Virus record (IMG/VR): IMGVR_UViG_3300015607_005478
Strand: one strand, 5' to 3'
DNA length: 20,000 nt
From: an uncultured virus (IMG/VR IMGVR_UViG_3300015607_005478)
Lineage: Duplodnaviria > Heunggongvirae > Uroviricota > Caudoviricetes
The position numbers and the translations under genes are program-made. This document shows, one piece after another, positions 3,384 through 18,239 of this stretch; within the stretch, counting starts at the first letter, position 1, and the number at the start of each line of letters is the position of its first letter. Under the pieces are notes generated by a model. The model was not told where the DNA came from, made no database searches, and saw only the letters and a list, made by a program, of their open reading frames with translations.

Positions 3384-3386
3384 TCC

Positions 3387-3405
3387 GGAACAAGAAGGGT
3401 GGAGG
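3387..3405 (+). promoter_or_regulatory. repeated promoter-like motif copy 1 plus SD
   Basis: GGAACAAGA-AGG-GTGG(AGG), intergenic, upstream of pyrE ATG 3411. Confidence 0.65.
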
Positions 3406-3410
3406 GCCGT

Positions 3411-3980
3411 ATGGCTAGAGAAACGGATGTTCCCCGCACAATGCTCCTCGAGCTTCTGAAGGAGCATGCGCTCAAGCGCGGGGACTTCACGCTGAAGTCG
3501 GGGAGAAAGAGCAACTTCCTCATCAACTGCAAGGACGTCGTGCTCACAGCCGATGGGCACTACTTCGTGGGTCGTGTGATGCTCGAGACACTCCAAACCG
3601 CGGGCTGTAAGGCTGTGGCGGGTGTCGAGCTCGGTGGGTGCCCCATCGCGAGCGCCATAGCGATGGCGAGCTCGGTAACGGACAAGCCCATCAACGCCGT
3701 CTACGTTCGCAAGTCGCCGAAGGATCATGGCTCGAAGAACCTCCTCGAGGGCGAGGCGTTTGTGAAGAGAACGGACCCCATCGTTGTGGTTGAGGACGTG
3801 ACGACGACAGGTTCTAGCGCCCTCGACGCCGTCATCCAGCTTTGGAAGTACGGCTACAGCGTGATGGGCGTAGCCACACTTGTGGACCGCCTCGAGGGCG
3901 GCCGAGAAAACATCGTGTCGAAGAACCTCACGTTCTGGAGCGTGTTCGACCGCAACGACTTCCTTCCATCAGGTGAGTGA
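3411..3980 (+). CDS. pyrE: orotate phosphoribosyltransferase
   Basis: GDFTLKSGRKS, flexible loop YVRKSPKDHG, PRPP-binding VVVEDVTTTGSS, LVDRLEGG; SD GGAGG 3401-3405 (alternative GTG 3399). Confidence 0.95.
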   Translation: MARETDVPRTMLLELLKEHALKRGDFTLKSGRKSNFLINCKDVVLTADGHYFVGRVMLETLQTAGCKAVAGVELGGCPIASAIAMASSVTDKPINAVYVRKSPKDHGSKNLLEGEAFVKRTDPIVVVEDVTTTGSSALDAVIQLWKYGYSVMGVATLVDRLEGGRENIVSKNLTFWSVFDRNDFLPSGE

Positions 3981-4468
3981 TGACGAACGAAGAGCTCGCC
4001 GACGAGATCATCGTCCGCTTCAACAAACTCCTCGAAAATCCCGAGGTGCGCGCGGACATCAACGCGTTGCTACATCGCACCGTTGGCGCGTGCTGGCAGA
4101 CGCAGGAACATCCCACGATTCAAACCAACGCGCGGCGCCTCAGCGTCATGGGCTTGCTCAACGGCCTCATCGGAACTATCGGTGCCGGGCCGCGCGCCTC
4201 GTGGGGCCTCATCTCAGCTGAGTTCGACGATAGTGAATCGCTCGTGCGCTTTGTTCGCACGGAGCCATTTGTCGTTGGCGCGCCCGTGTGGTGCAAGGAC
4301 ATCACCGGCCCGTATCCAGAACTTCGCGGCCTTGTTGGCGCAGTGAAAGAGATCACGCCGACAGAGATCGTGGTCACGTATCACATCGGGAGAACGAAGA
4401 AGGATTACATCCTTCCTCGAGAAGAGGTGGTGCCCCATGAGCCCGTACCGCGTAAGCGCAAAGCCTGA
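3977..4468 (+). CDS. hypothetical phage protein with possible C-terminal SH3/KOW-like domain
   Basis: GTGA overlap with pyrE; HPTIQ...MGLLNGLIG pattern; C-terminal FVVGAPVW...GLVGAVKEI...IVVTY beta pattern. Confidence 0.7.
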   Translation: MMTNEELADEIIVRFNKLLENPEVRADINALLHRTVGACWQTQEHPTIQTNARRLSVMGLLNGLIGTIGAGPRASWGLISAEFDDSESLVRFVRTEPFVVGAPVWCKDITGPYPELRGLVGAVKEITPTEIVVTYHIGRTKKDYILPREEVVPHEPVPRKRKA

Positions 4469-4829
4469 AGAGCTGGCGCCGAAGAAGCCGTTTCTCTGCC
4501 GCATCGGTTTTCATGTCTGGGGCGGATGGGTGCTCGATGGCTGCAGCGTGTTCTGGTGCACGCGCTGCGAGAAGCATTTCTTCACCAACAAGCACCCAGA
4601 AGAGGTAGCGGCGGGTGACACTGTCGTCTCGTGGAGGCAGGTTCTCGGCGAGGTCCATCTTTGTGAAAACAAGTGGGCTACAGAGCCGTGCCGGAACAAT
4701 GCCACCTGTCTTGTGCAGCTCTATAGTGGAGCAGGCTGGGTGCTCTGCGATAAGTGCACCATGCACATGATCTGGGGAGAGGACGTCGAAACAGTGATCG
4801 CTCGTCCCCTTTTGCTGCGCACGCCATAA
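4437..4829 (+). CDS. hypothetical Cys-rich protein (130 aa)
   Basis: LCRIGFHVW...CTRC and LCDKC motifs; stop merges into next gene's SD (TAAGGAGG). Confidence 0.7.
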   Translation: MSPYRVSAKPEELAPKKPFLCRIGFHVWGGWVLDGCSVFWCTRCEKHFFTNKHPEEVAAGDTVVSWRQVLGEVHLCENKWATEPCRNNATCLVQLYSGAGWVLCDKCTMHMIWGEDVETVIARPLLLRTP

Positions 4830-4839
4830 GGAGGTCGAC

Positions 4840-5019
4840 ATGATGGGTGGAGACATTGCGGTCAACGTCCGCACGGGCGAGTACCGTCTTGTGATCGAAG
4901 TAGACCGCTTCCACAACGAAGTGACGTTCTCCGGCTCAATGAAGTGGGAGAGCTCGAAGGACTGGCGCGCGAGCGGCCGACACATGCGCCTGGTATGGGG
5001 CGCCTTCAAGGAGACGTGA
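4840..5019 (+). CDS. small hypothetical protein (59 aa), absent from ORF track
   Basis: Strong SD TAAGGAGGT; MMGGDIAVNVRTGEYRLVIEVDRF...WGAFKET*; fills the gap exactly up to ATG 5021. Confidence 0.75.
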   Translation: MMGGDIAVNVRTGEYRLVIEVDRFHNEVTFSGSMKWESSKDWRASGRHMRLVWGAFKET

Positions 5020-5020
5020 G

Positions 5021-6652
5021 ATGCACGTCGACGACTTCATCGAAGATCCGACATCCGATAAGTACGCGGTGTCGTGGTTCGAGTCATTTCGGCGGCCAGA
5101 GTGGGCCAAGCTAGAAAAGCCTGATGAGCGAAAGCTCTATGCAACGTACAAGGGCGAACGCTACCTCGTGACGGGCTGCTCGCGGATGGGCGATGTGTGG
5201 CTGCACTCGGACCTGACGTACACGGGCATGAGCTACGAGAGACGCGTGAACGTGGCTGACTGCTCTGCGTGGTCATCAGAGCCACAGGAGAAGGGCGATG
5301 CCGAAAATTCGAATCTCATGGGAGCAAGCGCGGATGCTGGGGATAGCGCACTGCGAATGCGGTCACCCAGCGAACAATCACTTCCTGGACCAACCGGGGA
5401 AGCCGTGCGCGCACTGCAAGTGCAAGAAGATGAAAGAGCGCATCACGCTGCCGAAGCGCCGGCGTTAGGGCATGAGCAAGTGATCATTGGTGCCATCTCC
5501 GGCGAAGGCTATGTACAGTCTTGGGGAGTGAGCGCAGACCATGACGCGGGCGAGGCTCGCCAAAACCAGATCATCGTCGAGACTCCGCGCTCAAGCGATG
5601 TCACGACCGAACATGCTGAGGCGTTGATCGCCTGCGCGGCGCCCGTCGCGCCGGTAGCAACCTTCATCACTGCAGATGAGAATCGCCCGAACGAGGCGCC
5701 GCCCGCGGAGAAGTGCGGCACGTGGCTCGACGACGGGACGTGGGAATGCAGGTGCCGCCATGCGAGCGTGAACGACGCTGCCGTCTTTCGGTGTGGATTC
5801 TGCCAACTCTTTCGGCCCGCACCGCGCCCGCAAGAGGCGCCGACACCGAAGATCGACACGGCCGCATGGCTGGAGAGCATCGCTGGCCTGGCCGAAAAGT
5901 TTCTCGAGGACACCACCGACTTCGCGGTCCGCGGACTGCTCGATAGGGCACTCACGCTTCGCCACCACAAGCCGAGCCCAGATTCGCCCACGCTAAAGGC
6001 CGCGACACTGGAGTGCGATCACTGCGGCGATGTCGCGATCGAGTCGAGTAGCGGATACTTTTGGGACGGCGACGGCGGGCGATGTCTCGCGTGTGGCCAC
6101 CCTGGCCATGTTTCTTGTGACGGCGAGGAGTCGCCTTGGTGGAGCACGGGAGACGGAGAGGACGACTTTTGCGCACGTCCCGATTGTGAGGAATGCAACG
6201 AACGCCGCGTGAAGCGGACGGACAAGGCGCTGCTCGATAACATCAATGAGCAAAGGGCGCTGGTCGGGAATCCACCGCTGTCCCGCGACGAGCTGCGCAA
6301 CGCAACTCGCTGCTGTCGAGCATTTTACGGACACGAGGCTGGGTGTCCTAGCGCCAAGGGAACGAAGGGCTCACTGTTGCTCGCGAGCGGCATCTGTCTC
6401 ACGGTGGAAGAGGTCGACGAAGTGCTCGCAGCACGTCGCGTGGACTATCCGCTTCCCGCTCGCGAGATCGCCGAGATGCTGCGGTACCTCTGCGGCGCGC
6501 TCGAACACGATCTCCCGTCCGAAGGCATGGGCGACGACGATGCCGAGCGCCAGAGTCTCAGCTACCTCTACGACAACATTCGCCAGGCGCAGGCTATGGC
6601 GACGCGGCTCGATCCTCGCACTGATTCAGTCACGACACCGGAGAAGAAGTGA
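5021..6652 (+). CDS. 543-aa composite ORF: N-terminal small phage domain plus C-terminal multi-zinc-finger region; probably two genes joined in frame
   Basis: SD AAGGAG; HVDDFI...YLVTGCSRMGDVWL...CSAWS module ending near 5287; WECRC...CGFC, CDHC, CLAC, CEEC motifs later; possible second start GTG 5528. Confidence 0.65.
   Translation: MHVDDFIEDPTSDKYAVSWFESFRRPEWAKLEKPDERKLYATYKGERYLVTGCSRMGDVWLHSDLTYTGMSYERRVNVADCSAWSSEPQEKGDAENSNLMGASADAGDSALRMRSPSEQSLPGPTGEAVRALQVQEDERAHHAAEAPALGHEQVIIGAISGEGYVQSWGVSADHDAGEARQNQIIVETPRSSDVTTEHAEALIACAAPVAPVATFITADENRPNEAPPAEKCGTWLDDGTWECRCRHASVNDAAVFRCGFCQLFRPAPRPQEAPTPKIDTAAWLESIAGLAEKFLEDTTDFAVRGLLDRALTLRHHKPSPDSPTLKAATLECDHCGDVAIESSSGYFWDGDGGRCLACGHPGHVSCDGEESPWWSTGDGEDDFCARPDCEECNERRVKRTDKALLDNINEQRALVGNPPLSRDELRNATRCCRAFYGHEAGCPSAKGTKGSLLLASGICLTVEEVDEVLAARRVDYPLPAREIAEMLRYLCGALEHDLPSEGMGDDDAERQSLSYLYDNIRQAQAMATRLDPRTDSVTTPEKK
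5298..5468 (+). CDS. nested 56-aa basic zinc-binding protein in the +1 frame
   Basis: AGGAG 7 nt before ATG; MPKIRISWEQARMLGIAHCECGHPANNHFLDQPGKPCAHCKCKKMKERITLPKRRR*. Confidence 0.7.
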   Translation: MPKIRISWEQARMLGIAHCECGHPANNHFLDQPGKPCAHCKCKKMKERITLPKRRR

Positions 6653-6891
6653 TGCTGAGTTGGGGTGCGTGCCTCGTCATGACGTTCATCGGTGCGTTTT
6701 TGATCGGTCGCATGTGGGAGCGTGCCAAGCGAGAGCGTCCCTATTGCCGCGAGGAATCGTGTCGAAGACGCGTCGACATCGCTGGGGCACGTTGCCAGCC
6801 ATGTCTCGAGGGAATCGCTCGTAAGTACGAGATGCTCACCGCTGTTGCGAAGGCTCAGGGCACGAACGGAAAGAAGGTGCACGGGTCATGA
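6649..6891 (+). CDS. small membrane-anchored Cys-motif protein (80 aa)
   Basis: GTGA overlap; N-terminal hydrophobic helix then CxxxxC...CQPC. Confidence 0.65.
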   Translation: MMLSWGACLVMTFIGAFLIGRMWERAKRERPYCREESCRRRVDIAGARCQPCLEGIARKYEMLTAVAKAQGTNGKKVHGS

Positions 6892-6936
6892 CGCTCGAAC
6901 GCGGTCTAGAAAACGCTCAAGAAGCGAGATGGATGA

Positions 6937-6955
6937 GGCATAAGAGGTGTGGAGG
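6937..6955 (+). promoter_or_regulatory. repeated promoter-like motif copy 2 plus SD
   Basis: GGCATAAGA-GGT-GTGG(AGG), upstream of ATG 6963. Confidence 0.65.
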
Positions 6956-6962
6956 CTAGACC

Positions 6963-7277
6963 ATGACCACACTTCTTCAACGACTCATCCTCGCGCTCTC
7001 GGACAACGACCTCTGCGATATCCGTGAACTCATCACGCAGGAGATGAAGCAGCGCCCGCTTAGAACTACGTGGCTCACTGCGATACCAGAGACGGTGGAC
7101 GATCGAGCAGCTCTCATGCGCTTCTTCATGCTCGATCGCAATATCACCGAACGCGACGCCCTTCGTCTTTGCACGGCGGTGAACTCAGGTGAGGCCGTCA
7201 ACATGAAGTATCTCACGCTCGACGCGTTCGACCGACTTAGCAGGATCCCAGGCGTTGTGCTGCGGTTGGAGCTCTAG
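6963..7277 (+). CDS. hypothetical protein (104 aa)
   Basis: GGAGG SD 7 nt upstream; abuts next gene. Confidence 0.8.
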   Translation: MTTLLQRLILALSDNDLCDIRELITQEMKQRPLRTTWLTAIPETVDDRAALMRFFMLDRNITERDALRLCTAVNSGEAVNMKYLTLDAFDRLSRIPGVVLRLEL

Positions 7278-7631
7278 ATGGCGCGGGCGCAAGCGGGCAT
7301 CCCGGGCATCAGCGTTTCAATCGAGACCGAGGACTACGTCATCATCACGCGCGGAGATCGGAAGGTCTTCGTCCACTTCAATGACCGCGACGGCAAAGTG
7401 TTCGCGAAGGTCAGTGGTGCTGGCGAATCACCGCTCGGGCGTATTCAACGCATCCTTGAGGCGACGGATATCGGAACGCCTCGCGGCGTGAACTCAGGGC
7501 GCTCGTCTTTGCGCGAGCGCGTTACCGCGTGCAAACACGAGATGTGGCACGTCGGTCTCGACACCCTTATTCGCTGCGTCGATTGTTCTGAAGTGGCGAA
7601 CAAGGAGTACTTCAAGGGAAGAGCAAAATGA
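7278..7631 (+). CDS. hypothetical protein (117 aa) with C-terminal CxH...CxxC
   Basis: Abuts previous stop, GGAG SD, ATGA overlap downstream. Confidence 0.75.
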   Translation: MARAQAGIPGISVSIETEDYVIITRGDRKVFVHFNDRDGKVFAKVSGAGESPLGRIQRILEATDIGTPRGVNSGRSSLRERVTACKHEMWHVGLDTLIRCVDCSEVANKEYFKGRAK

Positions 7632-8104
7632 GCATCGAACAAGATCTTGAGTTCTGGCACATCGAAGAGGACATTCGGTACTTCAAGGCGAAGATCGAGC
7701 TATCCATGCGCAGTCTGCCACCGCTCGCCGCCGAACGCGCGCGGATGTACCTCGTGCTTCTTACACAAGCCCGTGATGAGCTCGTGTTGAAGCATCCGCG
7801 CACGGGTGCCGAGACGTTCATGCCGAAGATGACGAACGAGGCACGCATCGAGTTCGTCAAGCACGCGCTCAACAGCGGACAAGAACAAGCACTCATAGAC
7901 TTTGCCGTGCACTACATCCAGGATCGCCTCGAGCATCTTGCGCGGCAGCCGCCCATGCCTCTCGGCAAGACGGCTCAGCAGGTGAATGAAGCCATCGAGA
8001 TCATCATGCAGTTCCTGCGTGACAACGGGCAGACGCAGCAGCTCGCGCGCCTCGAAGGGCAGTACAAAGCCATGCGCATTCTCGAGGGCGAGCCGTCTTC
8101 GTGA
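7628..8104 (+). CDS. hypothetical helical protein (158 aa)
   Basis: Four-base overlaps at both ends; typical codon usage. Confidence 0.8.
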   Translation: MSIEQDLEFWHIEEDIRYFKAKIELSMRSLPPLAAERARMYLVLLTQARDELVLKHPRTGAETFMPKMTNEARIEFVKHALNSGQEQALIDFAVHYIQDRLEHLARQPPMPLGKTAQQVNEAIEIIMQFLRDNGQTQQLARLEGQYKAMRILEGEPSS

Positions 8105-8283
8105 GCTACCGGATGCCGGTTGGCTGCCCCGCCTGCGGTGCACCTGCGGGTCAACCTTGTCGTCGACGCATCATTGATAGAAGCGACGGAAGCATACGCG
8201 TGCTCGGACACACGCCACGCTCACCGCATGTAGCGAGGCTCATGCGCATTCACGTGCTCAACCGAAAGAAAGAACATGGGTAA
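8101..8283 (+). CDS. small phage-type zinc-finger protein (60 aa)
   Basis: CPACGAPAGQPC...H..R motif; GTGA overlap. Confidence 0.7.
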   Translation: MSYRMPVGCPACGAPAGQPCRRRIIDRSDGSIRVLGHTPRSPHVARLMRIHVLNRKKEHG

Positions 8284-8509
8284 GTACGCACCGAATCCGA
8301 AGTGTGGAGCCTGCATCGCCGGTGGTGAACTCTGCATGCAATGCGCCCTCGACTGGCGCCTCAAGCAGAGCGCGGATGAAACGCGCGTTCTTCGACGCAT
8401 CGCCGCCATCGTCCGCGACCGCGCCCTTTTACGCATTCCCGAGCTCAAGCCGCTCTACAAGCGCCTCGACACCATCAGGAACCGCAAGCCGCGTCGGAAG
8501 AAGAGGTAG
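8276..8509 (+). CDS. small basic CxxC-CxxC protein (77 aa)
   Basis: CGAC...CMQC, basic tail, overlaps previous stop. Confidence 0.7.
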   Translation: MGKYAPNPKCGACIAGGELCMQCALDWRLKQSADETRVLRRIAAIVRDRALLRIPELKPLYKRLDTIRNRKPRRKKR

Positions 8510-8511
8510 TC

Positions 8512-9087: not shown

Positions 9088-9089
9088 TC

Positions 9090-9320
9090 ATGCCCAAACT
9101 CTCCTTCGAAGCACCGCCACAAGGCGCGTATAAAACGCGGCTTCTTCTCGACGACGTCCACGTCGATGGTGTTCTGAGCGTGGCCCTCCACTTCTCAGGC
9201 AACGCGCCCTTTCCTGCGTGCCTCATTGTGCTCTACGCCACCGAAGAGAACATCCCCATTGTCGAATCGCTCAGGACTATTCCCTGGGTCACCGTCGTTC
9301 TTGAACGACCACCCGCATAG
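9090..9320 (+). CDS. hypothetical protein (76 aa)
   Basis: ATG 2 nt after previous stop (preferred over track start 8994); followed by hairpin. Confidence 0.7.
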   Translation: MPKLSFEAPPQGAYKTRLLLDDVHVDGVLSVALHFSGNAPFPACLIVLYATEENIPIVESLRTIPWVTVVLERPPA

Positions 9321-9325
9321 CGCGT

Positions 9326-9368
9326 GTCGGCCCTCCTAGCGGGGGCCGGCTCTTTCCTTTAGCCTCCG
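9326..9368 (+). terminator. terminator-like hairpin with TAGCCTCCG tail
   Basis: GTCGGCCCTC-CTAGC-GGGGGCCGGC 10-bp stem (2 G-U), then TCTTTCCTTTAGCCTCCG. Confidence 0.7.
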
Positions 9369-9372
9369 GTTC

Positions 9373-9582
9373 ATGCCGCACAGCACGCACGGCCGAGAGT
9401 CGCCGGAAGAAACGCCCAACCTCACCTTCTGCCCCTGCCTCGGGCACGCACTGCAGAAGGAATGCGCCGAGGCGGGCTGCGGCTACTGCCACAACGCGGA
9501 GAATCCACCCCCTCCCCTCGACCCCGAGATATCAGCGGCGCTGGGCTGGGATGTAGACGCCGTTTACGGGAAGAAGGACTGA
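9373..9582 (+). CDS. small Cys-rich hypothetical protein (69 aa)
   Basis: CPC...C....CGYC; no SD, TAGCCT 7 nt upstream. Confidence 0.55.
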   Translation: MPHSTHGRESPEETPNLTFCPCLGHALQKECAEAGCGYCHNAENPPPPLDPEISAALGWDVDAVYGKKD

Positions 9583-9586
9583 CGAT

Positions 9587-9955
9587 ATGGACGACATTCG
9601 ACCGAAAGGCACCGGGGAAGGGCCATGCGCATCCTGCCCCGTGGGTGAGAACGGCGAGCGCTGGTACTTCTGGGTGGACGCCCTTGATCCGCGCTTGCCG
9701 GATGGCCCCTTCATCTGCCCGACATGCATCAACGGCGACAAGCCCCTCGAGAAGGAGACCGTCGAGGGTCTCATCCAGCAATTCGGCGCGCAGATGTGCC
9801 TCGACATCGCGCGGGAAAAACTACAGAACCACGCCCCCGATCTCTACCCTCCACTTATCCGCCAGTTGCTTCGGTACACACAGAGCCTCAGCCACACGCC
9901 CCTCTGGCAAGAAGTCGACGCGCTCCTCAAGAAGAACGCTCCCCAGGAGAACTGA
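9587..9955 (+). CDS. hypothetical protein (122 aa) with CxxC pair
   Basis: AAGGA SD; CASC...CPTC. Confidence 0.75.
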   Translation: MDDIRPKGTGEGPCASCPVGENGERWYFWVDALDPRLPDGPFICPTCINGDKPLEKETVEGLIQQFGAQMCLDIAREKLQNHAPDLYPPLIRQLLRYTQSLSHTPLWQEVDALLKKNAPQEN

Positions 9956-9961
9956 TCCACC

Positions 9962-12900
9962 ATGGCCGGATATACCGCCGAAGAGATTCAAGCCGTCGTC
10001 GAGAAGCTGGTGCTCTCCACCATCCGGAGGCCTTTCGACACTCTCGGTGTAAGGAGACCGGATGTGTCCTTCACGGATGTGCAAGAGGCTGCGGCCGGGG
10101 TTTTCTTGTTGTACCCAAACAGCCCTTTCTACGTTCTATACCTAGGAGCACAGCGCCTTGGCGACCTGATTGCGGCGGAGGCGTCCAGCATCGAGCAGCT
10201 CCTGGACGCCATCGAGGCGACAGGACGGAACGTGCTGCCGGTCGAGGACGTGTCGACGCTGTTCAACGCCCAAGCGGCTCTCCAAGAGCTCGGGAGCGCG
10301 GCGGCGGCCCGAGGGGGCATCTTCGGGGACATCACCAAGGCGCCGGCGTACCAGCGCTTCTCGAACAACGTGCAGCAGTTCCTGAGCGGGCCCGGCCAGA
10401 ACGTGAAGCAGGCAGGCACCATCGTCCAGACGCCTCAGCAGGCGCGGGCGGCCATCCCTGGCCTTCTGTCCCAGCTCGAGGAGGCACATGCCACGCTCGT
10501 TGCTCGGGTGGGCGGCATCGCGAGCGGCATCGAGGACTACAACAAGGTGAACCTGCCGCGCGTTGTATCCACCTCGGTGCTCTCGAACGCGGCGAACCTC
10601 GTGGGCGCCGATGCAGCGGCTCTGGATGTACTCACTCCAACAGAACGCCTGACCCTCATCCGCCAGACGGTGCTCGACGTGCTGAGCGTCCGCGCGGTGG
10701 TTACAACGTTTGGCTCCTTCGCACCGGCGAGCGACTTCTACGCGCTCGAGGGCATCGGGCGGCCCTACTCCGATGCGAAGCACTTGAGCACGCCCGCGTT
10801 CGGCGATGTGGGCGTCAACACCTTCGGCATCATCCAGGGCGTCAACGACAGCATTACTGTCACCGTCGACGACGGCGCGCCACTCACACTGACCTTCCAG
10901 CCCTCGAACCTCGCCGAGCTCGACGGCGTGGCGACGGATGACCGGTTCATCATCGGCAATGGCACAACGCCCGTCCTTCCGGGTGGAGCGTCTGTTCCGA
11001 ACAACAACATCTTCCAGCTTGAGGTGGACGGCACCATCTACCAAGCGACGCTCACCCCTTCGAGCTCGCCCACACCGGCGGTGCGCATTGGCTCGGGGGA
11101 TACAACAACGTCGGGCTGGTACGGCGGTGGCGGCACGCTCAACGGCAAGACGCTCATCCTCAACATCGACGGCACGTTCACGTATACGGTGACGTTCACC
11201 GCGCCAGCTAACGCAGCGGCCATGGTCTCGCAGATCAACGCGGTTACAAATGTGACCGGTGGGCAGCATCTCGTTGTAGCGGACATCTTCAGCAATCGTC
11301 TCAGGCTCACCACCGTAAACACGGGTGCCGGCGCGGTCATCATGATCGGGCCAGGCACGGCCGACAGCATCCTGGGACTGGCACAAGGCACAACGGTGCG
11401 CGGATCTTCTGGAGCACGCACCGCAGACCAAGTAGCGGCGGACATTCAGGCCGTGTTGCCCGCCGGCGTTGTAGCGGAAGGTTACTTCACGCCGCTCCGC
11501 TTCAGCGGCGCCTTCCATATCAATGCGGACTTCGCTGGGTTCTCGACGTTCGAGGCTCTTGCGGGAGCCACGGACTTCCTCGCACTCGGCGTGACGAACA
11601 AGGACGTCGTTCACGTGTTGGATGGGCCAAACGCCGGCATCTATCCCATCAACGCCGTCGGCACGACCACGATCGATGTATTGGGCTTCTTCACCGATGA
11701 CCCGAGCCGCGTGTGTGAAATTGGTCCAGCCAACCGCGCGGTGCGCGTCCGTTGTACGGATCCTGCAACGCAGCTCCCGATTGAAACAACCATCAAGACC
11801 GTTGCGACGTTCTCCATCGCGCAGGCGTGCCTCGACGTGCTCGGCTTCATCGCCGGCGGTGCCTCGCAGTGCTTGCGAACGCCGATGAAGGACCTCGCAA
11901 CGGACCTGAGCCACAAGAGCTCGGCGCTCTCCTTCGAGGCCGTGCCGCATTACACGCTCACGAATGTCCGTGCGCTCACGAAGCCGACGGATCCGAGCGT
12001 TGTAACCATCGTGCCGATTCAAGCCGTCGGCACACAGGCGTTCGCCTCCACGACCATCGCGTACACGGTTACATCCGTGGTGGCTTCGCAGCGCGCGGTT
12101 GTTCCTTCTTCTGACCGCCTCTTCCTCAACGACGGGCCGAACGCCTTCGCTGACTACGGCATCAACACCATCAATGGCTCCACGGCAGCGAAGACGCTCG
12201 AGGTCGGCGATGTGATCGTAGGAACGGGTACAGTCGCAGGGAGTGCGGGCTCCGGCGTCACTGTCTACATCAGCCAGCCCTTCACACCGGCGAAGTATGA
12301 CGTGTTCGCCATCGATGGCGGTCCGAACAACGGTGACGATTACGTCGTCGGGCCTCCGCTGACGGGCGTGAACATCTTCGACGTGCCGTTGCTCAACCGT
12401 GCGTTGCCTGCGTATGTGTCCGGCCCGAGCACACCCATCGAGATGTCGCTCAGCTACGGACAGTCGTATCTGCGCTTCGCGTCCCCGACCCCAACCACCG
12501 CAAGCCGCATCCGCGTCTCGAGTCCGAGCTCGCTCTTCGCGGCTGTCGATCGTTACGGCACATCACCTTGGTTCTTGCTGCCGACGGTTCCTCGCGGTCT
12601 GCAGGCCGGGGACCTCTTCTTCGGCTACTCCTCGGATTACAAGACGCCGAGTATTACGGCGACCATCGATTCGGTCGACACGTCGCTCAAGGTTATCGGC
12701 GTCAGCCCCGAGCTCGCCTCGAACGTGACCTGGCAGTTCTCCACGCAGCCTCCGCCCTTCGCGCGCCTGCGCATGGGCGTTCTGAACGACTACTCCACCG
12801 TCAAAGAGAAACTCGATGCGTGGCTCGCTCGCGATGTGAACCAAACCTCGTTCTTCACCAACTTCAACCGCTTCATCAACCCGCTCCTCGCGAACGACAA

Positions 12901-13387
12901 CCCGACAGCGGTGCAGGTCGGCACGGCGAAGAACGAGCTCCTGCGCTTCTACGCCTATCTGCTCGCCACCGAGGCGGAGGCATTTGGCATCGATGCGGCT
13001 CTCGCACTCGACACCATCTTGTCCTTGTACACAGTGCAGCGCGTCGATGCCGTGGACACGCTCCTTCGGACGTTCGTGGAGAAGGGCTCGGACCGCGCGA
13101 ACGACCTGCTTCTTCAGGGCGCGTTCCAGACCTTCTTCGATCTCACCGTCGACGGCGCGAGCTACAGCGGCGCGTTCCAAGAAGCGGTGCGCGACGTAGC
13201 CCGTAACGACCTGCCTGTCCGACGCGTGAACCGCGCAGATGCGCAGACCTCACGCATGATCAGCCAGACCTCGAGCCCCGACTTTGAATACACGGCCGCA
13301 AGCGTGAGCGAGTCGGTGGAAGGCGACGCATCCGTCGACCCGCCGGGCACCTACGGCGAGCCGGCGAACTACGGACGTACAGATTGA
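9962..13387 (+). CDS. large probable virion structural protein (1141 aa), tail/baseplate-like
   Basis: Long ORF rich in Thr/Gly/Ala/Val with low charge; helical termini around a beta-rich core; TLNGKTLILNIDG...SQINA...LRLTT...GTADSILGL module. Function is inferred. Confidence 0.6.
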   Translation: MAGYTAEEIQAVVEKLVLSTIRRPFDTLGVRRPDVSFTDVQEAAAGVFLLYPNSPFYVLYLGAQRLGDLIAAEASSIEQLLDAIEATGRNVLPVEDVSTLFNAQAALQELGSAAAARGGIFGDITKAPAYQRFSNNVQQFLSGPGQNVKQAGTIVQTPQQARAAIPGLLSQLEEAHATLVARVGGIASGIEDYNKVNLPRVVSTSVLSNAANLVGADAAALDVLTPTERLTLIRQTVLDVLSVRAVVTTFGSFAPASDFYALEGIGRPYSDAKHLSTPAFGDVGVNTFGIIQGVNDSITVTVDDGAPLTLTFQPSNLAELDGVATDDRFIIGNGTTPVLPGGASVPNNNIFQLEVDGTIYQATLTPSSSPTPAVRIGSGDTTTSGWYGGGGTLNGKTLILNIDGTFTYTVTFTAPANAAAMVSQINAVTNVTGGQHLVVADIFSNRLRLTTVNTGAGAVIMIGPGTADSILGLAQGTTVRGSSGARTADQVAADIQAVLPAGVVAEGYFTPLRFSGAFHINADFAGFSTFEALAGATDFLALGVTNKDVVHVLDGPNAGIYPINAVGTTTIDVLGFFTDDPSRVCEIGPANRAVRVRCTDPATQLPIETTIKTVATFSIAQACLDVLGFIAGGASQCLRTPMKDLATDLSHKSSALSFEAVPHYTLTNVRALTKPTDPSVVTIVPIQAVGTQAFASTTIAYTVTSVVASQRAVVPSSDRLFLNDGPNAFADYGINTINGSTAAKTLEVGDVIVGTGTVAGSAGSGVTVYISQPFTPAKYDVFAIDGGPNNGDDYVVGPPLTGVNIFDVPLLNRALPAYVSGPSTPIEMSLSYGQSYLRFASPTPTTASRIRVSSPSSLFAAVDRYGTSPWFLLPTVPRGLQAGDLFFGYSSDYKTPSITATIDSVDTSLKVIGVSPELASNVTWQFSTQPPPFARLRMGVLNDYSTVKEKLDAWLARDVNQTSFFTNFNRFINPLLANDNPTAVQVGTAKNELLRFYAYLLATEAEAFGIDAALALDTILSLYTVQRVDAVDTLLRTFVEKGSDRANDLLLQGAFQTFFDLTVDGASYSGAFQEAVRDVARNDLPVRRVNRADAQTSRMISQTSSPDFEYTAASVSESVEGDASVDPPGTYGEPANYGRTD

Positions 13388-13412
13388 ACACGGCATAGAT
13401 TGAAACAAATCG

Positions 13413-13431
13413 GGGACAAGAGACATGGAGG
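13413..13431 (+). promoter_or_regulatory. repeated promoter-like motif copy 3 plus SD
   Basis: GGGACAAGA-GAC-ATGG(AGG), upstream of ATG 13437. Confidence 0.65.
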
Positions 13432-13436
13432 AACCC

Positions 13437-13817
13437 ATGTCACTTTCCAACCAAGCACAAGCCGATCAGGTACTGCGCAACCTTTGTGCTCCACGCAGGG
13501 TGGAGCGGAAGAAAGTAAAGAACGGCCTCGACGCTGCCATGTACGCGATGGACGCGTTCGATCGGTGGCGCGACTTGCACGACAAGGCGGACACCGTCGA
13601 AGACGCCGAGCGCGAGGCCTGGCTCGAGTTCCGTCACTACTTCGACGAGATGCTTCGTCTCACGAAAGACCTCGACATGCTCTCGCACTTGTCACTCGTC
13701 GAACGGACGAAGGCACGCGTTCTCATCCGCAGCGTTCAAGTACTCTCGCTCATCTACGGGCCCTCGAATCGGAAGGAGCTCGAGGCGCCACCTCGTAAGA
13801 GCTGGTGGAGGGGTTGA
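13437..13817 (+). CDS. hypothetical helical protein (126 aa)
   Basis: GGAGG SD 13427-13431 (alternative in-frame ATG 13425); followed by hairpin. Confidence 0.8.
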   Translation: MSLSNQAQADQVLRNLCAPRRVERKKVKNGLDAAMYAMDAFDRWRDLHDKADTVEDAEREAWLEFRHYFDEMLRLTKDLDMLSHLSLVERTKARVLIRSVQVLSLIYGPSNRKELEAPPRKSWWRG

Positions 13818-13820
13818 CTC

Positions 13821-13853
13821 GGAGAGGGCGGAAAGCCCTTTTCTTAGCCCCCG
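13821..13853 (+). terminator. terminator-like hairpin with TAGCCCCCG tail
   Basis: GGAGAGGGC-GGAAA-GCCCTTTTC stem (2 G-U), then TTAGCCCCCG. Confidence 0.7.
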
Positions 13854-13888
13854 TTCCCGCCGCGCGGCCGCACCCGTAAAGTGAAGGT

Positions 13889-15094
13889 GTGACCACCACG
13901 AAGAAGTTCCAGATCAATCCGGATGACCTGGAGTTCGGAAAACCGCGGATTTTGCTCGTAGAAGACGAGCCGACTTTCGCCAAAGTCGTCTCGCGCGTGT
14001 TATCCGATGATTACGAAGTGGTCGTTGCCGCCGACGGTTTGGTGGCCAGCACCCTGCTGACCGAGCCGTTCGACCTCATTCTGACCGACCTGCTTCTTCC
14101 CGGCCTCAGCGGTGTGGACCTTCTGCGCTTGGTCAGGACCTACGACCTCGACGTGCCGATGGTCATCATGACCGGCATGCCGTCGCTCGACACGGCCATC
14201 GAGGCGGTCCAGCTCGGCGCGCTGCAGTACCTCGTGAAGCCGGTGGACCTCGACCTGCTGCGAGAGACGGTGAGTAAGGGCGTTGCGCTGAACCGCCTGG
14301 CGCGGACCAAGCGGGCCGCCCTTGCCATCGCCAGTACAACGGAAGCCAGAAGCGAGCCGCTCTTCATGGGCGATCGTTTGGGGTTGCGGGTGCGGTTCGA
14401 CCGAGCGATGCAGCACCTGCGTCTCGTCTTCCAGCCCATCGTCGACTTCAAGACGCGGCGCATCGTGGCGTACGAAGCGCTCATGCGCTCGCGGGAGGAC
14501 TCGCTGCCGTCACCGGGCGCTGTTCTCGACGCCGCCGAACGTCTCGGGCTTGTAGGCGAGGTGGGTCGGCAGGTTCGCCATCTGGCCGCGGCTGCCATGC
14601 CCCTTCTTCCGAAGGGAGCCGATCTCTTCGTGAACATCCACACCGCCGAACTCGCTGACGACTTCCTGTTCTCGGGCGGCTGTCCGTTGGTGCCCCATGC
14701 CACGCGCGTCATCTTCGAGATCACGGAGAGGGCGGCTATCGACGGCGTGCACGACTTACCGAAGCGTGTTCGCACCCTCCGCGAGATGGGCTTTCGCATC
14801 GCTCTGGACGACCTCGGTGCGGGCTATGCCGGGCTCTCCACGTTCGCTTCTCTCGAGCCGGACATCGTGAAAATCGACATGTCCCTCATCCGCAACATCC
14901 AAGACTCGATTACGAAGCAGCGTGTCGTGCGCTCGCTCGTAACACTCTGCCGCGAGATGAACATGCGTGTCGTGGCGGAGGGCATCGAGACAAGCGAAGA
15001 GCTCGCCGTCGTCGCCGACATCGGTGCCGACCTTCTGCAGGGCTACTTGCTCGGCAAACCGGCAAAGGTATTCAGCACGAAAGTGAACCTCTAG
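13889..15094 (+). CDS. response regulator receiver (REC) plus EAL domain c-di-GMP phosphodiesterase
   Basis: REC: ILLVEDE, LILTDLLLPG, MTG, LVKP. EAL: FQPIV, YEALMR, FVNI, FEITER, IALDDLGAGY, VKIDMS, VAEGIET, LQGYLLGKP. Confidence 0.95.
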   Translation: MTTTKKFQINPDDLEFGKPRILLVEDEPTFAKVVSRVLSDDYEVVVAADGLVASTLLTEPFDLILTDLLLPGLSGVDLLRLVRTYDLDVPMVIMTGMPSLDTAIEAVQLGALQYLVKPVDLDLLRETVSKGVALNRLARTKRAALAIASTTEARSEPLFMGDRLGLRVRFDRAMQHLRLVFQPIVDFKTRRIVAYEALMRSREDSLPSPGAVLDAAERLGLVGEVGRQVRHLAAAAMPLLPKGADLFVNIHTAELADDFLFSGGCPLVPHATRVIFEITERAAIDGVHDLPKRVRTLREMGFRIALDDLGAGYAGLSTFASLEPDIVKIDMSLIRNIQDSITKQRVVRSLVTLCREMNMRVVAEGIETSEELAVVADIGADLLQGYLLGKPAKVFSTKVNL

Positions 15095-15117
15095 CCTTCT
15101 TCTGCTACAACCGGGCG

Positions 15118-15405
15118 ATGCGTACCGTTCTCACGTTGGGTCGCTTCTCGTTCGCCGTTGCCGCGGCAGCTACTGCTGGAACCGCTGATAGCGCGGAGCT
15201 GACCCTGCCGGCTGAAGCCGCGAGCACGATGATTCGAGAAGAGCCGCCTCTCGCACCCGGCCCGCGCTCGCGCAAAGAACGTCGAGCCGCAAAGAAGTTC
15301 AATCGCCTGCTCGAGCGCCGCCTCAGCAAGGACAAGACGCCGGTGAGGGTGGAAGTACAGCCCGACGGCGGCCTGCACGTGCAAGTCAACACACGGGAGA
15401 AGTGA
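15118..15405 (+). CDS. hypothetical protein (95 aa), possible signal peptide
   Basis: MRTVLTLGRFSFAVAAAATAGTADSA N-terminus; TGATG overlap with next ORF. Confidence 0.6.
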   Translation: MRTVLTLGRFSFAVAAAATAGTADSAELTLPAEAASTMIREEPPLAPGPRSRKERRAAKKFNRLLERRLSKDKTPVRVEVQPDGGLHVQVNTREK

Positions 15406-15518
15406 TGTCCCTGCGCGCCTTCGATTTCATCAGCGGGTTTGTAACCGGGCTGCTCGCCCTCATCTTCCTCAGCTTCTTGCGCCACGCGTACATTCTGTAT
15501 CTGTACCGACGTCGATAA
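15405..15518 (+). CDS. 37-aa single-pass membrane microprotein, absent from ORF track
   Basis: GGGAG SD, TGATG overlap; MSLRAFDFISGFVTGLLALIFLSFLRHAYILYLYRRR*. Confidence 0.65.
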   Translation: MSLRAFDFISGFVTGLLALIFLSFLRHAYILYLYRRR

Positions 15519-15527
15519 GCTGGAGGC

Positions 15528-16031
15528 ATGAGAGAGCTCACGCAGACCAGCCTCAACCCCGGCAACTGTTGGCAGACGTGCATTGCTTGCATTCTTGAGC
15601 TCGACCCGGAGACGTTGCCGTCCCAGGTTGAGCACGACATGCGCCGTGTTATGGGTCCGAACGGTGACTGGACCTGGGAGGGCCGAGGTTACGGCAACGT
15701 GCTCGGCAACTACCTGCGGAAGCATCACGGACTTGCGTACGTCCAGCTTCATTACCCCGAAGAGATATGGTCAGCAGTTGCTGTCCGCCCTGGTCTGCAC
15801 ATGATGACCGGGCGCACCGAGCGAACAGCGCAGAACGGTTCACGACATGTTGTGGTTGGTGAGAACGGCTCAATCCGTTGGGACCCGCATCCTTCGAGAG
15901 CGGGTCTCCTCGACGAGATCGAATACGGCTTCCTCATCCCCTTCCCCAAGATGTGGGAAGAGACGTGGACCCGCATGCGCGAAGACTGCCTCTGCCCTGC
16001 CTGCGTGAGCGTGGCTAAACTCACTCCATGA
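15528..16031 (+). CDS. putative papain-fold (C39-like) cysteine hydrolase
   Basis: GGAGG SD; Q...GNCWQTCIACILEL, RHVVV, WDPHPS give Gln/Cys/His/Asp in papain order. Confidence 0.65.
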   Translation: MRELTQTSLNPGNCWQTCIACILELDPETLPSQVEHDMRRVMGPNGDWTWEGRGYGNVLGNYLRKHHGLAYVQLHYPEEIWSAVAVRPGLHMMTGRTERTAQNGSRHVVVGENGSIRWDPHPSRAGLLDEIEYGFLIPFPKMWEETWTRMREDCLCPACVSVAKLTP

Positions 16032-16411
16032 AGCTGGCCGAGCTCGAGCCCCAATTCCTGCGTCACGAAGAGAAGCTCGAGAAGCGGATGTATCAGACCA
16101 AAGATGGTCGTACAGAAGAGCGAGAAGAGCTGCAGACGTACCACGTCTACGAAGACGAGCTGTCGAAGGCGCAGGGCATCATGTTCTTGTGCCCCGAGTG
16201 CTTCAAGAAGAACAACGGGCCTGTCGGAACACATTCGGTCATCTGCTGGTTCCGCGACCGCGGTGTCCCTGCGGATGCTTTCCCTCTCCCCGGCCGCTGG
16301 GTTGTAACCGGTACAACCTATGAAGACCTCACCTTGAGCCCTTCTGTTCTTCTGACCGACGGCTGCCGGTGGCATGGCTTCGTTACGGGAGGAATGATCA
16401 CGCAGTGCTAA
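16028..16411 (+). CDS. DUF6527-like zinc-binding protein (127 aa)
   Basis: FLCPEC...H...W...DLTLSPSV...CRWHGFVTGG; ATGA overlap; family name recalled from memory. Confidence 0.65.
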   Translation: MKLAELEPQFLRHEEKLEKRMYQTKDGRTEEREELQTYHVYEDELSKAQGIMFLCPECFKKNNGPVGTHSVICWFRDRGVPADAFPLPGRWVVTGTTYEDLTLSPSVLLTDGCRWHGFVTGGMITQC

Positions 16412-16414
16412 TCG

Positions 16415-16493
16415 AAGAGCAGAAAAAAACTTGAGAGGGTCTAAGTAGTTGAAATTAGGTAGGCGGACTCTCTTCAAGTTTTTTTCTGCTCTT
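16415..16493. repeat. long inverted repeat / stem-loop in AT-rich spacer
   Basis: AAGAGCAGAAAAAAACTTGA (16415-16434) is perfectly complementary to 16474-16493; after a 1-nt bulge, 8 more pairs (16435-16442 with 16465-16472, 2 G-U); 22-nt loop. Confidence 0.95.
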
Positions 16494-16557
16494 TTATCAA
16501 CGTCACTCTCTCAAGATCTCTACCTAGACGAAGAGCTGGAAGAACAACCCCAGGCAG

Positions 16558-16573
16558 GGGATAAGACTTGTGG
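16558..16573 (+). promoter_or_regulatory. repeated promoter-like motif copy 4
   Basis: GGGATAAGA-CTT-GTGG; SD AGGAGG at 16585-16590, ATG 16596. Confidence 0.65.
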
Positions 16574-16595
16574 TCACTACAACTAGGAGGACCAC

Positions 16596-17444
16596 ATGTT
16601 CGTTTGGGGAAGGCACCATGCTGCCCTCTGCCGAGCTCGGCAGATCATCGACTTTCTAGGCGCGAGACTTGATCGCGGTCCGCACCTCACCGTCATCAGG
16701 GAGTTCAACGAGCCGTCTCTTCTTATGGGACTCGGCGTTCGCCTCAGCTCGATTGTGCTGGTGTGCTCGAGCGAGGAGGCTCTTGAGGTGGAGCGACATC
16801 TGCCGCAGCTTCGTATCATCGCCGATGATCTTTCCGGCGCCATCAAAGACTGCCGACGCCGTTACACCTACGCGTTCTACGAAGCTCCGGGAGAAGGCAC
16901 GCTTACCACGCGTGCGGTCGACGAGTTCCAGCAGATCCTCTCTCAGGGCGTCGCCACCGACGGTCTGGCTGCTATCTCCTTCACCCTCAACGCGAGCGAG
17001 GATGAAGAAGAAGCACCCGAGCTCGTGAAGATCATCAGTGAACGTGAGGTTGGTGCTGACAATCCAACTCTGAGGTCTATCGACCTTACAGCGTCGCTTC
17101 GGGTGGCGGCGTTGCTACAGATGAACGCCTGGCGTTTTCAAACGACAACGGTGTGGGAGCCCAGTCACGTCTTTGCCTGGGAACTTCCTGACGGCGGCTG
17201 CGAAGCCTTTGCGATTGGGCCGGTTCGACGTGGGCGTCGAGCGCAGACTGCCGTGCTCGGAGACAGAATCTTTGCACCGGTCACGGCCGCCACGCTGGCC
17301 TCGGACGAGGAGGGCTTCAAGCACCGCATCGTCGAGTTCTTCGAACGCTTCAACAGCACACTGGCCGACCGCGACATGACCATCGCCACTCTCGCAGCCG
17401 TCATCAACATTCCGTTCAAAGAGGTTTCGACATGGATCAAGTGA
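16596..17444 (+). CDS. hypothetical protein (282 aa) with possible C-terminal helix-turn-helix
   Basis: AGGAGG SD; C-terminus RDMTIATLAAVINIPFKEVSTW fits an HTH pattern. Confidence 0.75.
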   Translation: MFVWGRHHAALCRARQIIDFLGARLDRGPHLTVIREFNEPSLLMGLGVRLSSIVLVCSSEEALEVERHLPQLRIIADDLSGAIKDCRRRYTYAFYEAPGEGTLTTRAVDEFQQILSQGVATDGLAAISFTLNASEDEEEAPELVKIISEREVGADNPTLRSIDLTASLRVAALLQMNAWRFQTTTVWEPSHVFAWELPDGGCEAFAIGPVRRGRRAQTAVLGDRIFAPVTAATLASDEEGFKHRIVEFFERFNSTLADRDMTIATLAAVINIPFKEVSTWIK

Positions 17445-18172
17445 ACATCCGCGCTGTTCTCGTTTCTCACTTCCCGCCAGCGTTCACCCACGAGACGCTC
17501 ATCCCAAAGATGAACGAGCTCGGTGTGCAGGTCGACCAGGTTGTGAACGCTGAGCGCAACAAGGACTTCGGCCTCGGTTCGGCCAACCTCGTCATCTGCA
17601 TGAGGGACTACATGAGCCATTCGTCCTACGACGCGGCGAAGGACGCGGCGAAGAAAGCCTCGTTGCCCTTCGTGGCGCTCACGCGAAAGTCGTCCGACTG
17701 GGAATCGAAGTTGGGCGTGGCCGTGAAGCGCATACAAGCGGCACGCGTTCCGGCGAAGCCAAAGCGCCCCAATGCCAGGTTTGCGGACGTGTCGACCCTC
17801 GGGTACACCCCGCCCGAGCCGATCTCAGAGCCCGTCACGGAGCCAGAGGAACCGCCGGAAGCGACGACCGACGAGCTTCGCGAGCTGCTTGCGATGTTCG
17901 AGGAGGACAACACAAAGCTAGGTCTCGAGCTCAAGGCCGCAGAGCACCTAGCCGCCAGCCGCCAAGAAGAAATCTACGGGCTGATGCGTCAACATGAAGC
18001 GAATCTCGCGCAATTCGCAAAGGACTTCTTCAACAAGCAGACGCTGCTCGAGGGCCTCCGGGTCCTCGCAGACTTGAAGGCCGAGAAGCCGGGGGCAATG
18101 CGTGCCGTTCTGGGCTTCGCTCATAAGACCGGCCTCACCATCCCAGAGCTCCTCGAGCTCGTCGGCGTCTGA
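17432..18172 (+). CDS. DUF2325-like domain protein with Pro/Glu linker and coiled coil (246 aa)
   Basis: GAGGT SD; ANLVICMRDYMSHSSYDAAKDAAKKASLPFV resembles the DUF2325 core; PEPISEPVTEPEEPP linker. Confidence 0.7.
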   Translation: MDQVNIRAVLVSHFPPAFTHETLIPKMNELGVQVDQVVNAERNKDFGLGSANLVICMRDYMSHSSYDAAKDAAKKASLPFVALTRKSSDWESKLGVAVKRIQAARVPAKPKRPNARFADVSTLGYTPPEPISEPVTEPEEPPEATTDELRELLAMFEEDNTKLGLELKAAEHLAASRQEEIYGLMRQHEANLAQFAKDFFNKQTLLEGLRVLADLKAEKPGAMRAVLGFAHKTGLTIPELLELVGV

Positions 18173-18174
18173 TC

Positions 18175-18219
18175 GGGAAAGAGCAGCGGCAAAAGCCTCT
18201 GCTCTTTTTCTAGCTCTCG
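18175..18219 (+). terminator. terminator-like hairpin with TAGCTCTCG tail
   Basis: GGGAAAGAGCAGcGGC-AAAA-GCCtCTGCTCTTTTTC (one mismatch), just after the stop at 18172. Confidence 0.7.
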
Positions 18220-18220
18220 C

Positions 18221-18239
18221 GGCATAAGAAGAGCGGAGG
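18221..18239 (+). promoter_or_regulatory. repeated promoter-like motif copy 5 plus SD
   Basis: GGCATAAGA-AGA-GCGG(AGG), upstream of ATG 18247. Confidence 0.65.

Follow-up and report, generated by a model that had tools for sequence, protein, structure and literature searches.

The window analyzed here, a 20,000-nucleotide stretch of the uncultured tailed phage IMGVR_UViG_3300015607_005478, has all of the gene-sized open reading frames (ORFs) that fit a coherent map on its plus strand, and most of its ~35 genes had no family match. Five of the gaps between these genes hold a short element, GGNAYAAGA-N3-RYGG (searched as GGNAYAAGANNNRYGG), which a first-pass annotation had proposed to be recognized by a sigma factor or RNA polymerase encoded by the phage, with transcripts starting near RYGG. 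Comparison with related phages supports this proposal through the architecture of the element, its placement, the genes that the relatives carry, and a register equal to that of sigma-28 promoters. With a probability of about 0.7, we consider the element to be the core of a two-part promoter read by a phage-encoded sigma factor, here called sig2.

Five copies of the element in the window

Exact copies begin at positions 3387, 6937, 13413, 16558, and 18221, on the plus strand only, and lie in intergenic gaps of 27, 71, 49, 184, and 246 nucleotides, respectively, so that the five identically spaced copies described in the first pass were recovered to the coordinate. The chance estimate made there, ~0.01 copy per 20 kb, was reproduced by 200 dinucleotide-preserving shuffles, which gave a mean of 0.01 copies and in no case reached five. 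When up to two mismatches were allowed, the window had 11 matches against 7.0 ± 2.8 expected, i.e., no surplus over chance. In four copies, the terminal GG opens the Shine-Dalgarno (SD) sequence GGAGG, as had been noticed, and an ATG follows 5 to 7 nucleotides later; the exception is the copy at 16558. A weight matrix built from the window and its relatives (described below) recovered exactly these five sites at a score of at least 16 bits; for the upstream part, the mean at random positions is −8.0 bits (standard deviation, 5.1).

Site 1 (positions 3365 to 3405, plus strand; 27.9 bits, upstream part 5.2) has TGAA at 3367 to 3370 and the core GGAACAAGAaggGTGG at 3387 to 3402, followed by AGG, which completes GGAGG; its predicted start lies at ~3401. 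The first gene after it (3411 to 3980, plus strand) is pyrE, encoding orotate phosphoribosyltransferase, a name already given in the first pass and upheld by TIGR00336 (137.6 bits; cutoff, 106.8) and phrog_32468 (4.8e-38). Site 2 (6915 to 6955, plus strand; 29.9 bits, upstream part 5.4) has TCAA at 6917 to 6920 and the core GGCATAAGAggtGTGG at 6937 to 6952, again followed by AGG; the 104-codon ORF that opens at ATG 6963 had no family match. Site 3 (13391 to 13431, plus strand; 33.8 bits, upstream part 9.4), with GCAT at 13393 to 13396 and the core GGGACAAGAgacATGG at 13413 to 13428 before AGG, lies in the gap directly 3' of a gene for a 1,141-amino-acid protein, and ATG 13437 opens an ORF of 126 amino acids. 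Site 4 (16536 to 16576, plus strand; 21.5 bits) has GGAA at 16538 to 16541 and the core GGGATAAGActtGTGG at 16558 to 16573; it has no immediate SD sequence, and AGGAGG and ATG 16596 follow ~20 nucleotides further downstream, giving a longer leader. This site comes ~60 nucleotides after a long hairpin with a T-run. Site 5 (18199 to 18239, plus strand; 23.3 bits, upstream part −0.2) has the core GGCATAAGAagaGCGG at 18221 to 18236, followed by AGG, with GCTC, a poor match, at the −35 position. It stands directly 3' of a terminator, and the sole ORF right after it (18247 to 18348) encodes 33 amino acids, so the first gene served by site 5 is uncertain.

Profile searches of the window proteins gave no family match for the genes served by sites 2 to 5. 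A weak sixth candidate, GGAAAAACAagcGTGG at 1260 to 1275 (plus strand), stands before ATG 1288; it has two mismatches, scores 11.5 bits (below the 16-bit threshold), and overlaps the end of the preceding ORF, and we regard it as doubtful. The window has no surplus of sigma-70-like sites (2 found and 3.4 expected). The sites matched no Rfam family, and no tRNA was found.

The element in related phages

The relatives were found through the 1,141-amino-acid protein encoded upstream of site 3 (9962 to 13387, plus strand), which has no assigned function and serves here as the family marker; it has 48 homologues, many of them on contigs of 170 to 197 kb. A scan of IMG/VR with the single protein gave no match, and an alignment of the homologues led to eight IMG/VR loci on contigs of 137 to 196 kb. 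Neither the marker protein nor the window itself (by megablast) had a match among cultured phages, and exact words from the ends of the window did not occur in IMG/VR. The DNA of the window occurs in seven wastewater metagenome DNA runs from two studies, and no RNA run is among those listed for it. About 12 of 36 ORFs are common to the window and the relatives, and the marker proteins are 39% to 55% identical; the common ORFs place the window, at considerable distance, in what appears to be the same broad family, probably one of large uncultured wastewater and soil phages of about 170 to 200 kb. A wider set consisted of the best 68 loci (1.5 Mb) among 305 IMG/VR stretches that encode relatives of the polymerase described below.

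The pattern was defined after the fact by the first-pass annotation, which is the one point in favor of a coincidental repetition or a relic of DNA duplication. Used without change, it returned 11 copies, all in the orientation of the marker gene, from four of the eight loci and 9, 6, 5, 4, and 6 copies in five whole relative records, in which the reversed pattern had 2, 0, 0, 0, and 0 (30 against 2 in sum). This replication, which had been suggested as a check, answers the after-the-fact objection, and since the copies in the relatives have unrelated flanks and only 0.01 copies were expected in the window, we regard the probability of chance or duplication as negligible.

When 34 exact sites from the window and the relatives were aligned, G, C, A, and A were found at positions −20 to −17 (relative to the first G) in 22, 22, 26, and 26 sites, respectively, and A was found at position +16 in 31. 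None of these positions had been used in picking the sites. From this unselected block 16 nucleotides upstream, the element is a two-part one, GCAA-N16-GGNAYAAGA-N3-RTGGA. The earlier statement that the copies have no shared −35 is thus wrong at the level of the family. In the window, the corresponding positions read TGAA, TCAA, GCAT, GGAA, and GCTC, and the upstream parts of four sites exceed the 95th percentile for random positions, with that of 18221 falling below it. The weakness of the block in the window is the reason why it was not seen in the first pass.

The weight matrix covered positions −22 to +18 and was refined in three iterations with a threshold of 16 bits. It found 108 sites in the window and the relatives, against none in reversed sequence, and 16 to 29 sites per complete genome; in the 68 further loci, there were 85 sites and a single one in the control. 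In two more distant complete genomes, a slightly loosened pattern had 8 and 8 matches, compared with 1 and 0. Some lineages vary the element at many sites at once: of the 19 sites of relative G002, 15 have C at position 4, and of the 29 sites of relative G005, 17 have C or A at position 7. Such lineage-wide change fits a dedicated factor that co-evolves with its sites and leaves undecided whose factor it is.

Placement relative to genes was counted in four whole relatives and the window with our own ORF-based gene calls, which are crude and unreliable in the choice of starts. Positional enrichment, on which the first-pass annotation had staked its proposal, is found: 82 of the 94 sites are intergenic, while noncoding DNA makes up 11% to 23%, and the other 12 lie inside co-oriented gene calls. 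None lies on the opposite strand of a gene, and 92 are oriented toward the gene that follows. In the four genomes, 42 of 89 sites have a divergent upstream neighbor, and 32 of the 58 divergent junctions carry a site (out of ~890 junctions). A promoter is needed at a divergent junction, where no upstream transcript could bring the motif. Other sites, including 16558 and 18221 of the window, stand directly after terminators.

Nearness to start codons raises the question of an RNA-level role, in which the motif would be a start-associated sequence, a translational operator or enhancer, or a signal for RNA processing or stability that includes the SD sequence. Among 107 nonduplicate sites, 54 have an ORF start 7 to 16 nucleotides past GG, as do four of the five window copies, and 48 of these have an SD-like word on the GG. 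In addition, N3-RYGG forms a modest excess of hairpins with the start-codon region, among them those of the window copies 6937, 13413, and 16558. The remaining 53 sites have a longer leader or no close start, and both groups retain RTGGA; fusion to the SD sequence is thus frequent but not required, and the motif is more than a ribosome-binding site. The conserved block 16 nucleotides upstream has no obvious RNA role, at the divergent junctions and after terminators there is no upstream transcript to carry the motif, and the window sites have no common fold (z-scores of −0.2 to −3.6, with different structures). The nearest known word of this kind is the start-associated sequence (SAS) of Cluster K mycobacteriophages, 13 bp long (5'-GGGATAGGAGCCC), which lies 3 to 7 bp from ATG starts and has a proposed role in translation (PMC3203893). 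As far as the available part of that paper describes it, the SAS resembles our element in being asymmetric, in having a single orientation, in lying in nonstructural gene regions, in including the SD sequence, and in its first six letters; it differs in having no −35-like partner, whereas here half of the sites are far from a start (53 of 107 have none within 16 nucleotides of GG, 16558 included), the upstream block is spaced, divergent junctions are enriched, and the consensus reads GGNAYAAGA-N3-RTGGAGG. An RNA-level signal is therefore very unlikely.

An operator is an alternative at the DNA level: a phage DNA-binding regulator, either a repressor or an activator, would bind the motif beside promoters. 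The stoperators of Cluster A mycobacteriophages are asymmetric, single-orientation, intergenic, and repeated, and our element is likewise asymmetric, of one orientation, intergenic, and present in many copies per genome. However, an operator should have a promoter beside it, and enrichment of 7-mers over all intergenic regions returned nothing but fragments of this motif and of a terminator tail, with no other promoter-like signal alongside. The two blocks stand at −35/−10 spacing, and at the divergent junctions, which need a promoter, nothing else is conserved save a host-type promoter that faces away. We see an even slimmer chance for an operator than for an RNA-level signal. In contrast, the reading as a promoter accommodates the spaced upstream block and the divergent junctions, and the word is distinct from host-type promoters and lies upstream of, and co-oriented with, phage units.

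A fused polymerase, a candidate sigma factor, and the proposed promoter

The first-pass annotation had also recommended a search for sigma factor and RNA polymerase genes. Profile searches of the 20-kb window found no sigma gene, and the relatives have both kinds of gene. All eight relatives of the first search encode a single polypeptide of ~2,130 amino acids (54% to 58% identity) that is a fusion of the bacterial-type polymerase subunits beta and beta' and is recognized by cellular profiles: Rpb2_6 (2.6e-56), Rpb2_3, Rpb1_1, Rpb1_2 (2.2e-31), and Rpb1_5 (1.3e-21), with NADFDGD intact in the consensus. The genes lie at 140307 to 146696 (minus strand) in relative G004, 63969 to 70409 (minus strand) in G001, and 23816 to 30268 (plus strand) in G005, and related genes occur in 305 IMG/VR stretches. 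A T7-like single-subunit polymerase (PF00940) was not matched in five relatives; control genomes were equally negative, so this result has little weight.

The five window sites are not syntenic, as the relatives have no sites at the same genes; the sole syntenic site lies beside the polymerase gene. In 42 of the 68 loci, a site stands 46 to 100 nucleotides upstream of the polymerase gene and divergent from it, and this arrangement holds in 38 of 46 loci with a polymerase identity of at least 50% and in 4 of 22 below 50%. The strand of the polymerase gene itself reads TCTTATCCC-N16-CTTGC(A/G)-N17-19-TAnnnT-ATG. TTGC, the reverse complement of the GCAA of the motif, is present there in 31 of 39 distinct upstream regions, and the full TTGCNN-N16-19-TANNNT is present in 17 of 39, compared with 0.085 expected from shuffles. 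The polymerase gene thus seems to have an ordinary sigma-70-type promoter that stands back to back with the motif promoter and has one −35 block in common with it. Such pairs were located at 70409 to 70528 in G001, 145664 to 145744 in G002, 23699 to 23815 in G005, and ~10 kb in loci L060 to L127. Because the main sigma factor of the host appears to read ordinary promoters, the motif would represent a different promoter class.

The candidate reader, sig2, is a 253-amino-acid protein of G004 (phrog_351, 7.7e-13) with homologues in G002, G005, G006 to G008, and four of five distant records. Counting G004, 10 of 13 records encode it, and the completeness of the other three is 91%, 88%, and 64%. 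Pfam sigma region 3 scores above its cutoff in sig2, and the NCBIfam matches to SigB/F/G (5.5e-10) and FliA/WhiG (3.3e-8; 33.5 bits, with a cutoff of 189.6) are far below the family cutoffs. A search with the sig2 profile against solved structures returned 63 chains, all of them sigma factors aligned over regions 2 to 4 (best, 4e-13). By these profile matches, sig2 appears to be a far-diverged, group-3-like factor of the sigma-70 family. Co-folding of sig2 with polymerase residues 1000 to 1450, the clamp-helix region, gave a score of 0.75, whereas the best of three controls scored 0.00; among solved complexes, 116 of 157 attain this mark, as do 2 of 215 mismatched pairs. The runs agree in at least 46% of the contacts, the predicted local distance difference test (pLDDT) score of the partner is at least 72, and the predicted contacts join polymerase residues 1209 to 1241 with sig2 residues 37 to 80. 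Since sigma-beta' complexes have already been solved, the model would indicate likeness to such complexes rather than binding.

The gene for sig2 follows a strong site directly in G005 and belongs to a site-headed operon in G004. Autoregulation was considered as a general feature and rejected, as G006 to G008 have no site within 1.5 kb upstream of sig2 and the gene simply follows another. G004 also has a second sigma gene (9290 to 9868, plus strand; a frame of 193 amino acids), FliA/WhiG-like (NCBIfam, 1e-34) and found in G004 only, in a unit headed by the motif site at 6948.

The register of the element was set by comparison with the fliC promoter in the Pseudomonas aeruginosa sigma-28 open complex, in which, according to the available text, the −10 element GCCGATAA occupies −15 to −8, the −35 element TCTAAAG occupies −36 to −30, and A−11 is flipped out (PMC12784957). 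Aligning ATAA with fliC puts GCAA at −34 to −31 and +1 on the first G of GG, and in this register GGNAYAAGA would be an extended −10 element, GCAA the −35 element, and RTGGA the start region. As far as that account goes, sigma-28 promoters have the two blocks in the same register, with ATAA at −11 to −8, an A-rich tetramer at −34 to −31, a G/C-rich extension before the −10 element, and a start implied 8 nucleotides past the last A. They differ in having TAAA where our element has GCAA and CCG where it has GGN; the GA conserved after ATAA and RTGGA at the start site are extra here. At the −10 octamer, which has a CGA core in sigma-28 promoters, the family consensus is S-G-G-N-A-Y-A-A, in which only ATAA agrees with GCCGATAA (Y at T), and the tetramer at the exact sigma-28 −35 distance, 15 bp before the octamer, matches TAAA in two of its four letters. 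The sigma-28 register is read from this alignment; where transcription starts, which factor reads the element, and which core enzyme takes part we infer. The element would thus work like a promoter of a group-3 sigma factor and does not have the sequence that defines a sigma-28 promoter.

The likeness in architecture and spacing is also the main argument for a reader of host origin, a FliA/sigma-28- or SigB/F-type alternative sigma factor acting together with the host polymerase, in which case the phage sigma factor would serve other genes. The extra FliA/WhiG-like sigma of G004 suggests traffic with the flagellar regulon of a host, and the lineage variants of the motif could follow different hosts as well as different phage sigma factors. 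However, the CCG that precedes ATAA is not kept, nor is half of the −35 tetramer, and the motif dominates the intergenic signals of the phage genomes, with about 16 to 29 sites in each. Moreover, the motif travels with a conserved phage sigma factor among lineages whose polymerases are 41% to 58% identical and whose G+C contents range from 48% to 70%, and a phage-carried factor fits because motif and sigma persist across such divergent lineages. We therefore consider a host sigma factor as the reader quite unlikely.

Under the preferred reading, sig2 would work with either the fused beta-beta' polymerase of the phage or the core enzyme of the host. A-Y-A-A would form the −11 to −8 part of the −10 element, and GCAA would take the place of the −35 TAAA. 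Transcription would begin at the first G of GG, and about half of the mRNAs would open with the SD sequence GGAGG in a leader of 10 to 13 nucleotides. In the window, five short units would be driven in this way, pyrE and four sets of genes without assigned function. The picture is similar in G004, in which the sites head short units of small genes, mostly without assigned function, and the block from the polymerase gene through the terminase and major capsid genes has no site.

Several points weigh against this reading. The case is made from comparative DNA evidence, and the sigma factor and polymerase of the window phage itself are inferred from relatives that have about 12 of 36 genes in common with it, at marker identities of 39% to 55%. 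Sigma, polymerase, and motif occur together in every lineage examined, so their distribution does not distinguish between possible readers, and no sig2 gene was found in the site-rich records G001 and G003. The −10 element departs from that of sigma-28 at the CCG positions, and the −35-like block is weak in the five window sites and at 18221 no better than random. The 12 sites inside genes are ascribed, without proof, to mis-set starts in home-made gene calls. Finally, N3-RYGG pairs with the region of the start codon: a complementary tetramer is present at 31 sites, compared with 19.1 ± 3.6 in swapped controls, and hairpins of this kind with at least two further pairs are present at 9 sites, compared with 2.5 ± 1.5. 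This pairing may be a 5' hairpin or chance; if the hairpins are real, transcripts would start a few nucleotides upstream of the prediction or would be read-through transcripts. In the window, such pairing is possible between N3-RYGG and bases at the start codon or immediately 3' of it at 6946 to 6974, 13422 to 13441, and 16568 to 16590, leaving the SD sequence in the loop.

Phages with their own sigma factor and promoter word form a known type, including phiEco32 and 7-11 (gp36), SPO1 (gp28 and gp33/34), and T4 (gp55). Our element resembles theirs in that a phage sigma is the probable reader and that a phage-specific word, which can be found from sequence alone, marks a set of units. It differs in that the phages here also encode a complete beta-beta' fusion, that the promoter keeps a −35 block, and that the predicted start lies on the SD sequence. 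The jumbo phages phiKZ and AR9 have multisubunit polymerases that are very diverged and made of several polypeptides, with short AT-rich promoter words without a −35 block. They are alike in that the phage encodes a multisubunit polymerase for which short promoter words are specific, but the enzymes are split and, to our knowledge, have no sigma-70-family factor, whereas the family described here has a fusion, a sigma factor, and a −35 block.

Nearer in polymerase type are the mReC lineage (PMC7481178), Salmonella phage Arash (PMC10585845), and the Vibrio D69 group, which, as far as the available texts show, are also large tailed phages with beta and beta' recognizable by cellular profiles, Arash having a sigma factor too. 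The polymerases of Arash and D69 are ~32% to 33% identical to those of the family and are split rather than fused. The motif was not clearly enriched in these two (8 against 2 in Arash and 2 against 3 in D69), and no polymerase was found in the moraphage lineage. In purified Arash particles, beta, beta', and sigma were detected, with beta having the highest spectrum count, according to the part of the report that is available (PMC10585845). If the enzyme here were packaged in the virion as in Arash, the motif would mark early genes; otherwise, it would mark a middle class. The fullest form of this idea is speculative and, in our view, rather unlikely: polymerase and sigma factor would be packaged and injected together, the motifs would be early promoters independent of the host and would start exactly on the SD sequence, and the genes for the polymerase and the virion would be left to the host enzyme, with the back-to-back pair sharing TTGC/GCAA. 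If true, it would define a class of mRNAs with a 5'-terminal SD sequence and a leader of 10 to 13 nucleotides made from host-independent early promoters.

Phages with a recognizable bacterial-type polymerase are widespread in metagenomes, as the 305 IMG/VR stretches indicate. The available text of the mReC (PMC7481178) and Arash (PMC10585845) papers is silent on how such a polymerase finds its genes: the word "promoter" is absent from both and "sigma" from the former. Among the matches listed in literature searches, those for the word GGGATAAGA were primers or unrelated, and those for phage-sigma promoters and jumbo-phage polymerases included no description of the word of this family. The conserved promoter word, the candidate sigma factor, and the predicted start make the transcription machinery of an uncultured phage testable at the bench. 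The predicted start on the SD sequence and the promoter pair with a common −35 block before the polymerase gene are unusual designs, and the promoter-sigma pair could be of use as an orthogonal expression module. The word is also of value in annotation, as it marks transcription units in genomes that consist mostly of genes without assigned function.

Terminators and other genes of the window

Four putative intrinsic terminators were identified on the plus strand of the window. The first (2800 to 2832; −16.7 kcal/mol) is a GC hairpin followed by a T-run and TAGCC, 25 nucleotides past the end of a co-oriented gene. The second (9326 to 9362), with a 10-bp stem and the tail CTCTTTCCTTTAGCC, is the top terminator-like site of the window, and the third (13820 to 13848; −16.4 kcal/mol) has the tail TTTTCTTAGCC. 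The fourth (18176 to 18214; −19.8 kcal/mol), with the tail TTTTTCTAGC, lies immediately 5' of site 5 and forms a terminator-promoter module with it. A very long, near-perfect hairpin at 16412 to 16500 (GAAGAGCAGAAAAAAACTTGAGAG ... CTCTTCAAGTTTTTTTCTGCTCTT), ~60 nucleotides before 16558, has T-runs on both arms and looks like a two-way terminator. The tail, consisting of a GC hairpin, a T-run, and TAGC(C/T), is conserved in the window and in G001, G002, G004, and G005, and TCTTAGC is enriched 154-fold in intergenic DNA. We considered these elements as a second promoter class and rejected this, since 38 of 45 intergenic tail copies after a stable hairpin lie past the end of a co-oriented gene and 18 are at convergent junctions, which identifies them as terminators. 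The gene starts at 2850, 9373, and 13889 come directly after terminators and lack the motif as well as a clear SD sequence.

The gene at 13889 to 15094 (plus strand) encodes an EAL domain joined to a response-regulator receiver (Pfam EAL, 2.5e-54; REC, 1.1e-21; also matched in NCBIfam), a PvrR-like cyclic di-GMP phosphodiesterase that could lower the cyclic di-GMP level of the host. A 543-amino-acid, cysteine-rich protein is encoded at 5021 to 6652 (plus strand), and its first ~80 residues are 38% to 44% identical to sequences in Cobetia phage Carin-5 and the Vibrio D69 group. The small protein encoded at 8101 to 8283 (plus strand) has a phage zinc-finger DNA-binding domain (PF24623, 3.9e-7).

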